Assembly (NCBI GenBank): GCA_964016885.1 | Contig: OZ024743.1 | Location: 27,466,001-27,530,000, forward strand | DNA length: 64,000 bases | Direction of reading: 5' to 3' | Source: Eledone cirrhosa | Taxonomy: Eukaryota | In this document: one piece after another, positions 867-60,332 of the stretch | How positions within the stretch are numbered: position 1 is the first letter of the stretch | Layout of the letters: every line of letters begins with the position of its first letter | Position numbers and translations under genes: made by a program | Notes under the pieces: generated by a model | Seen by the model: only the letters and a program-made list of their open reading frames with translations | Database searches by the model: none | Told to the model about the DNA's origin: nothing

Positions 867-912
867 AGCTTTGATAAGTAGCAAAAAAGTACGAAACAGA
901 GCTCTGTCAGCT
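867..912 (+). ncRNA. Type I hammerhead ribozyme, family A (UUGAUAA core)
   Basis: Stem I AGCT/AGCT, core TTGATAA, stem II GTA..TAC, GAAA, palindromic stem III ACAGAGCTCTGT, GUC cleavage triplet. Confidence 0.75.
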
Positions 913-1070
913 TTATTACCCCTGTTTGCAGAAAATGTAAAGTAAGTGAGACTGTCACTACTCTAAATCAATAGCGTAAAGTCTTCGAAATGCTTTTAAT
1001 TAAGCATACAGTGTATTGCAAAATACACTATATGTACATTTATATATATATATATATATATATATATATA

Positions 1071-1245
1071 ACGAAGGAAATGTGGTAAGGAACCAGGTGG
1101 ACCATAACGCACCAAAGTACTCAATACTTAGGGTAGTAGAGTTGGTAATAGGAACAAGTAAGACCCCGACGGTTGAGCTCAAGCCGTATCAACGGCTAGC
1201 CGTCGAAACGGCTTGAGCTCAGCCGTCGGGGTCTTACTTGTTCCT
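1071..1245 (-). mobile_element. PLE terminal fragment (family G) with a ~95-bp fold-back (1148-1245) carrying the 3' half of a hammerhead
   Basis: Matches 47069-47200. The inverted arms contain GAAACGGCTTGAGCTCAGCCGTC|GGGG. Flanked by (TA)n. Another fragment lies at ~21944-21994. Confidence 0.75.
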
Positions 1246-1445
1246 ATATATATATATATATATATATATATATATATATAGATTGGCGTAGACATTACAA
1301 TACAACGGGAGGAAATTTAATAGTACCACTGAATATTTCACAGATGTGTGACGAACGAAAGAACTTTGATAGACTATATATATATATCTGTATTTTTAAC
1401 CGTTGGTCAATCAATGATAAACATTGATTGCCAGATAAATCATTA

Positions 1446-2313
1446 TCTATAAAAGGCAGATTGTTGTTGTTGTGTGTGTGTGTGTGCATGTTCCATGTTT
1501 GTACATTTGCACAATTTCAAACCGATTCGACTCAACAACTGTAAGAATGTTGTAAATGGTCTAACTTAGGTAAACGACTATTTATTTCATCACACACACC
1601 CACAATTACGGAAATAATCGATAAAACTAAATACATGACGCTTTACCCCTCTAATGGAATCTGAATACCTCTCTCTACTCCCCTTAAACTTTAAGAGAGA
1701 GAGAGTGAGAGGGAGAGAGAGAACGTTTGTTTTTGAGTGTGGAACGGTCAAATATTTATTTACTTCAATGACAAAGAGAACTTATTACATTTCATACGAA
1801 ACAACAATTATTCAAAAGCAACAGATAAATTTATTCAACAACAAAAAAAATAGCGATAAATCTTTTTTAAAACATCTATCAACGAACGTGGAAGAAAGAA
1901 GTATCAGATCATTTACTATACACAATAATATCCTCTATGAGATCACTAAACCTGCTAGAAACAGCAGCTAACTCTCCCCCATATCACACCCCTCCCTACT
2001 GTCTTAAATTTAGAAAATACACAGACAACCATGCAGAACAACTCCATCGCAGCTCTGTTGTTCGGCTGGCATCGTCTACGCGCGTGTTGCGCAAGTACTG
2101 TGAAACAAAAAATTTCAACACTTCTTTGCACAGAGATAATATCCATAGGCGAAACTACAATTGTCACTGCTGGCGCAGCTCCTGCTTCGGCAGTCCAGGT
2201 CTGCATTCATTCACCCAGAGCCTGGCAGACAAAAAAGTGCTGCCATAAAATGGGTGGTGCAACCTAACTTTGGTAACTTACTGACCCCGAGCAACGCCGG
2301 GCTTTAATGCTAG
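1446..2313 (+). mobile_element. Non-autonomous Helitron-like element
   Basis: 5' A|TCTATAAAAGGCAG followed by a (GT)-rich tract; 3' hairpin CCCG-AGCAACGC-CGGG (2286-2301) then CTAG|T; insertion between A and T. The 5' boundary is less certain. Confidence 0.6.
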
Positions 2314-2670
2314 TTAACTATAAAGATATAAAAGATACAGAAACGAAAACCAATCCAAACCAAACAGTGAGTGTGTTTTATTATTATTTATGGCAATATT
2401 ATAATAATATGACCCTCCCCAGATATAACAATGTTTCAACACACGATTTCATATCAAAAACCTTGCAAAACACATATATATATATATATATATATATATA
2501 TACCTTCAAAAGGCGGTGCCCCAGCATGGCCTCAGCCGGATGGCTGGAACAGGTAAAAGAGTAAAAGAGTAATATATATATATATATATATATATATATA
2601 TATATATATATATATATATAGAGAGAGAGAGAGAGAGAGAGAGAGAGTGTGTGTGTGTAAGAGAGAGTAG

Positions 2671-2838
2671 AGAGTCGGGGCCCAATGCCTGAGCTCTTGG
2701 TATTTCGAAAGCAAATATGCTGTTGAAACCGCAAGAGCTCAGACGTCGGGCCCAGACTCTTGACACGCTACTATCCCAAAGATCGAGTAATCTGCCGAAT
2801 AACGGTTTTATTGCTTTAAAACTGGTATAATCCTGATA
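2671..2838 (+). mobile_element. PLE-terminal fragment with an imperfect ~90-bp fold-back made of hammerhead 3' halves
   Basis: Arms 2671-2710 and 2724-2760 both read GAAA..AAGAGCTCAG..GGGCCC, resembling family G stem III. Ends in (TC)n. Confidence 0.5.
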
Positions 2839-2944
2839 TCTCTCTCTCTCTCTTCACTCTCTCTCTCCCTCTCTCTCTCTCTTTCTCCCTTTCTCTCTTT
2901 CTCTCTCTCGATGTATGTATATATATATATATATATATATATAG

Positions 2945-57987: not shown

Positions 57988-58176
57988 TGTTTCTACTTTT
58001 GGCACAAGGCCAGCAATTATACCAGTGTATTACTGGTAATTTATTTTATCGACCCCGTAAGGATGAAAGGCAAAGTTAACCTCGACGAGGTTTGAACTCA
58101 GAATGTAAAGGGCCATGACTCTATGCTGTAAAGCATGGTGTCTGACGCTCTACCGATACTGCCAATTCACCGCCCT
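57988..58176 (-). mobile_element. tRNA-derived Meta-like SINE (an older copy lies adjacent at ~57820-57965)
   Basis: Family match; flanking duplication ATATTAATAAT at 57977-57987 and 58180-58190. Confidence 0.85.
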
Positions 58177-59195
58177 TATATATTAATAATAATCCAAGAT
58201 AAAGTCCGTGAAACCCTTAACTACCATAGTTCATATCCTACATTTAATATCTATTTATTCGATGAAATGATATCTAACATGGGCATAACTGTATATGTTT
58301 TGTGGAAATGCATATACAAATGCAGCTCTTAACGATCCAGGAAGAATGAAAATCAAAATCTGCCATAGCGGAATTTGAACATAGTTCATAAAGGATGTAA
58401 AAATATGCAAGGGATTCTGTTCATCATTTTATCTATCGAGTCAACCCATTTGATATATTGACAAACTATTGTTCAACGTTATACGATACAGTAAATTACT
58501 AGCTTCTACTTCCTTAGCGAACAGTTTAATATCGATAAATCACAGGTGTTCGTCTGCCTGAACGGAAAGGTTAATTGAGTTATTTCGAACACCACATGCT
58601 AAAAAACATTTCCAGAACAGGTTTCTTCAGAAACATAAATTTGCCAATTTACTGAACAATTTCAGTGTTAGATCCTAAAGGTATAGTTAACGTTAATAAC
58701 AAAACTTTCTATTTCACCAATTCCGATTCATGCTACTTTTTCTGTGTGTGTTAATGTGTTTGTCTTATGTAGAATTGAATGAATTTAAATCATCGCACCA
58801 GTATATATTTTAAAGAAATTCTATATTTCTTTTTCTTTTGCAGATATTCTAGTTTAATGAAGCAGTATTTTCTTTTTGTCGTCATATTCTCGTAACACTG
58901 TAACTTCGGGGAGATTGATATAATGTTCAGCAAATATTTCAGAATCATGCAATTTAAATTACTTCATATTGTCATTAATATATTGCATTGAATTGTAGAT
59001 TTTTTTGTTAGCGTGTTATATATCTCAGTAGTAATATCACAATCAGTTCTGGCAGCATCATCGGCTAATGGAATCATGATATATAGTATATGTGATCAGT
59101 GTGTAAATAAATATGTATATATATATATATATATATATATATATATATATATATATATATATATATATATATATATATATATATATATATATATA

Positions 59196-59927
59196 TAATT
59201 TGATATTTAGTAAAATCGAATCTCTGGTGATTTGCAAGCAAATTCGGCCTACTTATGAGGTGATGAGTTAGCAAAGCACTCGATAAGTTAGGTCCTTAGA
59301 GTAATAACATACGTTTAAATAGCTTGACAAATCTAACATTGTGGTAGGCAAAATCTAGCCCACAATAACATACCAAAGTAACGATAGAACTAACAGGTTC
59401 TGGACAAATCAAACGATTATACGCTTAAAGTGTTTCTATGAAACCGAAATCACATATCAGATTTACGTGACTGGCTAGCTCCAGGTATATTTAATCGAAC
59501 AGAAGATTCATTTTATCAACAGGTTTTCGTTCAACCAAGGACGGGGTGATAGGCTAAATGTTGCTGCTGTGTCGCGGCGTATTGTATCTATAGCTGTACG
59601 TGTTTTTTGGCGGGTCATTCAAAATGTTAGATAAAGGAAATATTTTAATTCCCGTTAATCATCAGCATAAGCTCTCGACCAGATGTTATAAAACAAACAT
59701 AAATAATTAACCAATCAACAGAATTGTCTAATTAAATTAATTAGTTAATTATTAAATCTAGGAGAATAATATAATTGGATATTTAGTAAAATCGAATCTC
59801 TGGTGGTTTGCAAGCAAATTCGGCCTAATTATGAGGTGATGAGTTAGCAAAGCACTCGATAAGTTAGGTTCTTAGAGTAATAACATACGTTTAAATAGCT
59901 TGACAAATCTAACATTGTGGTAGGCAA
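59196..59927 (-). mobile_element. Non-coding unit of ~575 nt with a ~155-nt terminal direct repeat, between (TA)n tracts (PLE pseudo-LTR-like)
   Basis: 59196-59351 is repeated at 59770-59927. The minus strand has CTGATGA at 59659-59665 but no clean downstream GAAA arm. Confidence 0.65.
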
Positions 59928-59948
59928 TATATATATATATATATTCAG

Positions 59949-59997
59949 GCTTCCTGAAGATTTCATCTGAATGAAACAGTACTAGTCCTGTAGAAGC
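59949..59997 (+). ncRNA. Type I hammerhead ribozyme, canonical core (family I), in PLE terminus 59945-60087
   Basis: GCTTC CTGAAGA tTTCatctGAAt GAAA CAG tactagtc CTG TA | GAAGC. Confidence 0.8.
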
Positions 59998-60263
59998 TCC
60001 TTCTATAAAATAAAAAAATTTTACTCTGCCATGTATTGAGTACCTTACTTACTGTGGTTATCCCCGACTCAACCCGGGACCTACGTATATATATATATAT
60101 ATATATATATATATATATATATATATATTATAAAGTGAGGTTTTTTTTACAAAATGAAAAATAACCGAGGTGTCCTACACGAGTGAAAGTATAAAGAAAA
60201 AGAGATGAAATCGAAAATGCAACTGGAGCCTTATTTTTTTTAAAATATATATATTTATTTGGT

Positions 60264-60332
60264 TCCTTTACCGGTTTCGCAGTTCTTCTGCTTTTGAAAA
60301 GCAGAAGAACTCCGAAAGCAGAAGAACTGCGA
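60264..60332. ncRNA. Rearranged hammerhead halves (family J, UUGAAAA core) forming a local fold-back
   Basis: Plus: CTT TTGAAAA GCAGAAGAACT(C/G)C GAA. Minus: GCAG aagaa CTGC GAAA CCGG TA | AAGG. Confidence 0.5.

Follow-up and report, generated by a model that had tools for sequence, protein, structure and literature searches.

U3–A8 hammerhead motifs in Penelope-like elements and a retrozyme of Eledone cirrhosa

How does a genome come to hold hammerhead ribozymes (HHRs) in which the canonical C3–G8 pair of the core reads U3–A8? The question is raised by a 64,000-nt stretch of Eledone cirrhosa DNA (GenBank assembly GCA_964016885.1, contig OZ024743.1, forward-strand positions 27,466,001–27,530,000; hereafter the window), for which an initial annotation made from the letters alone had noted UUGANAA cores in four repeat families, here called A, G, H and J. 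The assembly is AT-rich and 3.0 Gb in size, and the window is packed with (TA)n runs and short inverted repeat insertions. Our best explanation, which we hold to be likely, is that the motifs are type I HHRs in the end repeats of Penelope-like elements (PLEs; families G, H and J) and in a retrozyme (family A). C3–G8 would have changed to U3–A8 in at least three lineages, probably by compensated drift, and A, G and J are predicted to cut, whereas H probably does not.

U3–A8 cores in the window and across the genome

All eight motifs were found at or adjoining the places annotated, with TTGATAA in family A, TTGACAA in G and TTGAAAA in H and J. Family A has the layout AGCT-TTGATAA-stem II-GAAA-palindromic helix III-TC-AGCT. 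Its copy at 867–912 (+) has stem I from 867, the core at 871–877, GAAA at 893–896 and a predicted cleavage site after C908. An inverted copy at 503–547 (−; core 543–537), which aligns to Rfam HH9, carries two stem III substitutions that break the palindrome; a third copy at 154–194 (+; core TTGATAA at 154–160) is 5′-truncated at stem I, where a TA run removes the 5′ arm. The three lie in one or more insertions at 154–1040, in which incomplete ~320-bp retrozyme monomers of either orientation are bounded by (TA)n runs. The family G HHR at 47579–47670 (+; core TTGACAA at 47582–47588) has a 56-nt stem-loop II and a 5–6-bp stem III and lies in the end repeat (pLTR) of a Hydra-clade PLE. Its inverted arm at 47163–47256 (−; core TTGACAA at 47252–47246) is mismatched in stems I and III. 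A further G 3′ end at 1071–1244 folds back and is cut off within the hammerhead, without the 5′ core. The G copies in the window adjoin (TA)n. Several window copies are thus individually decayed.

The single J motif lies in a 3′ end at 60131–60332 (−) with a fold-back inversion running through the HHR: TTGAAAA stands at 60294 on the plus strand and the GAAA-CCGG-TA-AAGG half on the minus strand, which bears out its annotation as a rearranged copy. Other genomic copies of J read CCTT-TTGAAAA-GCAGAAGAACTGC-GAAA-CCGG-TA-AAGG. Family H is represented by hammerhead-like motifs at 52820–52856 (+; core TTGAAAA at 52823–52829, GCAA at 52844–52847, 3-bp stem I) and, in mirror orientation, at 49636–49672 (−; TTGAAAA at 49669). 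Its layout is TTT-TTGAAAA-GCATTTAGAAATGC-GCAA-CCGG-TA-AAA, so that A13 is replaced by C (A13C) in addition to U3–A8.

Families A, G and J satisfy the type I core (N3-UGA-N7-N8-A9 ... GAAA ... UH) with a Watson–Crick 3–8 pair, and place three helices with compensatory changes around it. The annotation had set the core of A, G and H squarely within a hammerhead fold; this holds for A and G, whereas H is not clean, having GCAA for GAAA, no intact G12-A13-A14 and only three A–U pairs in stem I. Family A aligns with Rfam Hammerhead_HH9, including its CAAAAA loop (E 2.5e-4 in a 521-nt search), and is the best of the four at 26.2 bits against a gathering score of 52, which no family reaches; G, H and J gave no Rfam match at E ≤ 1.

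Family states were taken from genome-wide exact patterns that allowed any base at positions 3 and 8, the state being read from the first 100 matches listed per family. There were 303 exact matches for A, 682 for G, 11,633 for J and 10,603 for H, and none for the backwards-pattern control of any family. Among the matches listed, U3–A8 occurred in 99 of 100 in each family and C3–G8 in none; flank-based queries found no CTGANGA copies of A, G or J. The annotation had itself raised the prospect that family consensus sequences might read CUGANGA and the window copies be mere decay. This is not the case: U3–A8 is the family state, and decay of canonical copies as its source is ruled out by these counts.

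A generic short descriptor returned 17,391 U3–A8 and 9,670 C3–G8 motifs, with 234 mismatched (by subtraction from 27,295); backwards controls gave 16, 11 and 50, respectively. The reading that U3–A8 outnumbers C3–G8 was rejected, because the descriptor misses a canonical PLE family with copies in the window, which adds 16,111 matches, and also misses H; the ratio therefore overstates U3–A8. A stricter scan (16 U–A, 15 C–G) was set aside for the same bias. We instead took 104 stretches of 10 kb chosen by coordinate (1.04 Mb) and applied a relaxed structure scan in which tandem copies were counted singly. This sample held 29 C3–G8 motifs, 19 U3–A8 motifs (five of them H-type) and 8 others, while shuffled sequence gave 9.8 matches in all per shuffle. 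The U3–A8 share of paired hammerhead motifs in this genome is thus about 40% (19/48). A CUGANGA-only census loses this share, in line with the annotation's suspicion that such searches miss many HHRs, and the Rfam gathering score catches none of the four families.

The elements and their lineages

Family A forms a ~320-bp tandem monomer, with arrays of period 318–322 at locus L015. No linked open reading frame (ORF) was seen in 60 loci of ±1.5 kb, and the monomer folds well (z −3.9). By structure it is a non-LTR retrozyme: a non-coding tandem monomer in the 170–400 nt range with one type I HHR each. A 316-bp U3–A8 sister, M316 (L289:1356–3031), is 79% identical to A, and a 310-bp C3–G8 relative at L199:9170–10000 has the 3′ part of the monomer in common with it. 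The 1.04-Mb sample also contained a 592-bp tandem repeat, K592 (L241:754–2431), with a U3–A8 HHR, a 57-nt stem-loop II and copies 100% identical within the array; its hammerhead fold lies 4.4 kcal/mol above the minimum free energy (MFE). No similarity of K592 to A, G, H or J was found, and it is a fourth U3–A8 lineage.

The family G HHRs are direct repeats 3,096 bp apart with a reverse transcriptase (RT) ORF between them (L181). The RT–endonuclease (EN) has DKT, RWR (RWK-like), a CxCX5C linker, no CCHH and a C-terminal EN, the element has pLTRs, and the RT resembles printed Hydra RTs by eye. We assign G to the Hydra-clade PLEs by the motifs of the published definition (Craig et al., 2021; PMC8557442; cited papers are drawn on here for parts of their text and supplements), and not by a tree. 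A first reading as Penelope/Poseidon was wrong, as DKT, RWR, CxCX5C and the absent CCHH indicate.

In a complete family H element (L182), HHRs 4,805 bp apart enclose ORF1 and RT–EN, with GLKF, DKG, a CX4CxxC linker, a CCHH-type C-terminal EN and pLTRs. In the region L182:3312–6571 (−), its 455-aa ORF1 has no Pfam match and overlaps the RT–EN frame by ~65 nt, which suggests a frameshift arrangement. In the window, the C-terminal GIY-YIG endonuclease of a 5′-truncated H element lies at 51188–51796 (+; PF01541, E 3.8e-7), ~1 kb upstream of the H motif, with an inverted copy at 50694–51302 (−). In L185, a J HHR follows a Neptune-type EN at a distance of ~1 kb, and the same linker and EN type as in H are seen in RT ends with EN at L185 and L321. 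Both families are of Neptune type by their motifs rather than by a tree; Nematis, which RT phylogeny sets apart from Neptune, shares the linker motif. G, H and J all have a C-terminal EN and A encodes no protein, so the N-terminal EN of Naiad and Chlamys is absent from the four.

The DNA of H and J is 73% identical over 123 nt around the HHR, their endonucleases are 56% and their RT ends 57–59% identical. H and J are therefore homologous, with a core common by descent, and what had been annotated as four unrelated families reduces to three lineages. All four share the insertion pattern of PLEs: the 3′ end is fixed and falls into two length classes, and the 5′ end varies and is often inverted.

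Selection on the 3–8 pair

Because copy counts reflect founders, selection was assessed between families. Over the core and the G10.1–C11.1 positions, 13 of 13 bases are kept between A and M316, 13 of 13 between G and its sister G2, and 12 of 13 between H and J. These sister families are 73–79% identical, and at that background identity the joint chance of such conservation is ~1e-4. Stem II pairs have meanwhile changed on both sides, three of four in the comparison of A with M316 and one in that of H with J. With any base allowed at positions 3 and 8, every one of the 11 clusters with at least three matches, out of 563 matches in all loci, had a Watson–Crick majority, C–G in five and U–A in six; five clusters of two members were excluded here, of which three are mismatched and probably represent noise or a single site sampled twice. 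Conserved cores amid compensatory stems support selection for a 3–8 pair, and independent switches from C–G to U–A without a mismatched family would be natural support for that pair. Family A also shares 75% over 91 nt with a C3–G8 tandem repeat, which is consistent with a switch inside that lineage.

Nothing here shows that U–A is favoured over C–G, because both changes follow the AT bias and canonical families are equally abundant. The annotation's proposal of selection for function thus stands for a pair at 3–8, but not as a preference for U–A, and family H speaks against function in its own case. We envisage that two AT-biased transitions (C>U and G>A), plausibly by way of a U·G wobble, became fixed in master copies because selection demands no more than a pair at these positions. 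For A and J, cleavage would be best in dimers joined by the self-complementary strands of helix III, which tandem transcripts permit, whereas the stable helix III of G would make monomer cleavage possible. Cleavage would then trim or circularise multimeric transcripts. H may have gained A13C while its stem I weakened, leaving a relic, probably crippled, that its element no longer needs.

The damage in H is seen at several levels. Its hammerhead fold costs 9.9 kcal/mol over the MFE, against 2.9 for A, 1.1 for G and 1.7 for J; stem I consists of three A–U pairs, and an upstream competing hairpin absorbs U3–A6. C13 is the base in 10,603 matches, against 39 for A13, and there are two stem II subfamilies. 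Changes of A13 are cited as costing 10–100-fold (PMC4075628). The H ribozyme is probably crippled by these measures although it is present in more than 10,000 copies. Such an expansion fits the report that PLE insertion in vitro can do without HHR cleavage, which needs protein help (Frangieh, 2024; PMC11167929). No description of the H core was found in literature searches, whose coverage was mostly without subscription papers. It is doubtful, but conceivable, that H is an active hammerhead whose core is absent from the literature searched and whose folding and activation are brought about by the protein of its own retrotransposon; an active H would escape CUGANGA and GAAA descriptors alike. 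A dead ribozyme is the likelier reading. Even then, H and J would provide a natural comparison for asking whether a hammerhead is needed by PLEs, since sisters with a damaged and an intact core, each above 10,000 copies, offer a direct handle on what PLE hammerheads are for.

Several points weigh against compensated drift in cleaving HHRs. Self-cleavage of A, G and J RNAs is predicted, and the direction from C–G to U–A is assumed from the canonical state rather than read from a rooted tree. Ensemble folding gives stem I a probability of 0.007 in A and, with long flanks, 0.008 in G; since stem I is this improbable there too, it is the energy gap together with A13C, and not ensemble probability, that makes the folding case against H. 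Positions 3 and 8 taken alone are kept in six of six cases over the three sister pairs, which is not significant (~0.75^6 = 0.18, a hand estimate), and J is tied to its ORF at few loci (L185, L321). When a type III hammerhead was mutated in all pairwise combinations, the G–C swap alone rescued the pair, and the remaining double mutants had low activity (PMC9901934), so U3–A8 ribozymes may be slow. In favour of cleavage, in vitro activity has been stated for U3–A8 ribozymes (Perreault, 2011; PMC3088659).

Slow cutting might itself be what is selected. U3–A8 would then mark a tuned-down ribozyme that spares full-length tandem RNA for reverse transcription, with A13C in H as the far end of the range. 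The same mutagenesis data agree with this, as do the very high copy numbers of J and H, the report that uncut RNA is the dominant insertion substrate in vitro (PMC11167929) and the suggestion that HHR absence may even help proliferation (Craig et al., 2021). Yet canonical families are equally successful, with the 16,111 matches of the window's C3–G8 PLE and the 9,670 short C3–G8 motifs, and U3–A8 occurs in architectures as different as the tertiary-loop A, the long-stem G and the minimal J. We consider tuning unlikely.

Less likely still is that the four motifs are all without catalytic activity, as relics or as structures that bind protein, with U3–A8 an AT-biased decay of founders amplified by transposition. 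Copy counts do mirror founder states only, inserted copies decay neutrally, H shows a damaged core amplified more than 10,000-fold, and cleavage in vitro is poor for the minimal PLE HHRs of metazoans (Cervera and de la Pena, 2014; PMC4209133). Decay would, however, leave families with a single mismatch (C·A or U·G), which none of the 11 clusters shows; core conservation with compensatory stems persists across 21–27% divergence, and A retains the CAAAAA loop 2 of the Rfam HH9 consensus. A single origin of U3–A8, passed among PLE clades and retrozymes through exchanged end repeats, could draw on the report that retrozymes derive from PLE pLTRs (bioRxiv 2026.07.22.740005), but the flanks of A, G, H/J and K592 share no DNA similarity beyond TA repeats at E < 0.05 and the stems are wholly different, which makes this highly improbable.

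Other repeats of the window and comparison with known systems

The window also holds at least seven canonical C3–G8 HHRs (4533+, 36694+, 34336−, 22299−, 61376−, 10630− and 4070−). Those at 4533, 36694 and 22299 are further copies of the HHR at 34298–34340 (−), which lies in the pLTR of a PLE at 34088–36888 (−) with RT plus GIY-YIG at the C-terminus (RT–EN at 34542–36285, −). Its helix III is non-palindromic, with GAAC or GACC between GAAA and UH, and more copies of the element lie at 4442–4723, 12819–13836 and 22049–22895. This PLE had first been read as HHR-less, wrongly given the canonical HHR in its pLTR. The other three canonical HHRs belong to other repeats, at 61341–61381 (−; CTGACGA), ~10580–10635 (−) and ~4000–4075 (−); a relative of the 61376 family (61% over 303 nt) is a 466-bp tandem repeat that forms long arrays.

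A dispersed ~170–210-bp repeat family has at least ten copies in the window at 74–90% identity, among them 11392–11561, 16534–16714, 24651–24854, 28445–28744, 32374–32578, 38849–39293, 55675–55887 and 57801–58197. Translation identified non-LTR retrotransposon ORF fragments at 9473–10136, 62124–62573 and 62987–63316 (all −). Long fold-back insertions between TA runs lie at 3369–3772, 45752–45869 and 46397–46455; HHR scans gave no match there, and the Rfam microRNA matches on them are hairpin artefacts.

The annotation had extended its argument to elements described as lacking HHRs. A search for Naiad cores with cuganga strings (Craig et al., 2021) makes that concern fair in principle. However, none of 35 TTGANAAG matches in that paper's supplement, which contains the Naiad, Chlamys and Hydra consensi, sat in a hammerhead fold (four 8-mers judged by eye on the printed strand, for G10.1 only and for matches unbroken by line ends), and the extension is not upheld. 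One Naiad consensus 3′ end in the supplement, in the record before Naiad-3_Nbra, reads CTGACGA-GTCCC...GGGAC-GAAA, that is, it has a canonical core whose loop 2 spans ~45 nt; some Naiad hammerheads may be hidden by long loops rather than by U3–A8. A literature search, with coverage mostly without subscription papers, found no relevant paper on octopus retrozymes or hammerheads.

Nor is U3–A8 reported only as a rare natural variant, as the annotation had it, at least in PLEs: a U3–A8 descriptor gave ~1,300 matches in Schistosoma mansoni PLEs against ~2,000 canonical ones (Cervera and de la Pena, 2014). The minimal HHRs of the S. mansoni Cercyon PLE resemble those described here in showing the same core covariation in PLE end repeats, found in the same way and at a similar share, and in their palindromic helix III and mostly single or inverted truncated copies. 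Our families differ from them in belonging to Hydra-type and Neptune-type PLEs and retrozymes, in numbering tens of thousands of copies and, for H, in adding A13C. The 2014 point from Schistosoma is thereby repeated and extended to these elements.

Family A matches the metazoan non-LTR retrozymes (Cervera and de la Pena, 2020; PMC7229834) in having a tandem monomer of ~320 bp that is non-coding and AT-rich and includes a full type I HHR; it differs in its U3–A8 core, in the PLE-like inverted truncations of many copies and in being known here from DNA alone. Family G agrees with the Hydra-clade PLEs of Craig et al. (2021) in DKT, RWR, CxCX5C, the lack of CCHH and the pLTR HHR, but the Hydra HHRs in their File S2 all have a CUGA core, in contrast to UUGACAA, the 56-nt stem-loop II and the 5–6-bp stem III of G. 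With the Neptune clade of the same study, H shares GLKF, DKG, CX4CxxC, a CCHH-type C-terminal EN and pLTRs, and J the linker and EN; unlike Neptune elements, both have a U3–A8 minimal HHR, and H also A13C and a 3-bp stem I. Natural covariation from C3–G8 to U3–A8 was described by Perreault et al. (2011), there in 'several examples', and A13C is not among the variants named in that paper's section on core variants. The families reported here are well-supported additions to an already published variant, to which they add the genome-wide share and the contrast between H and J.

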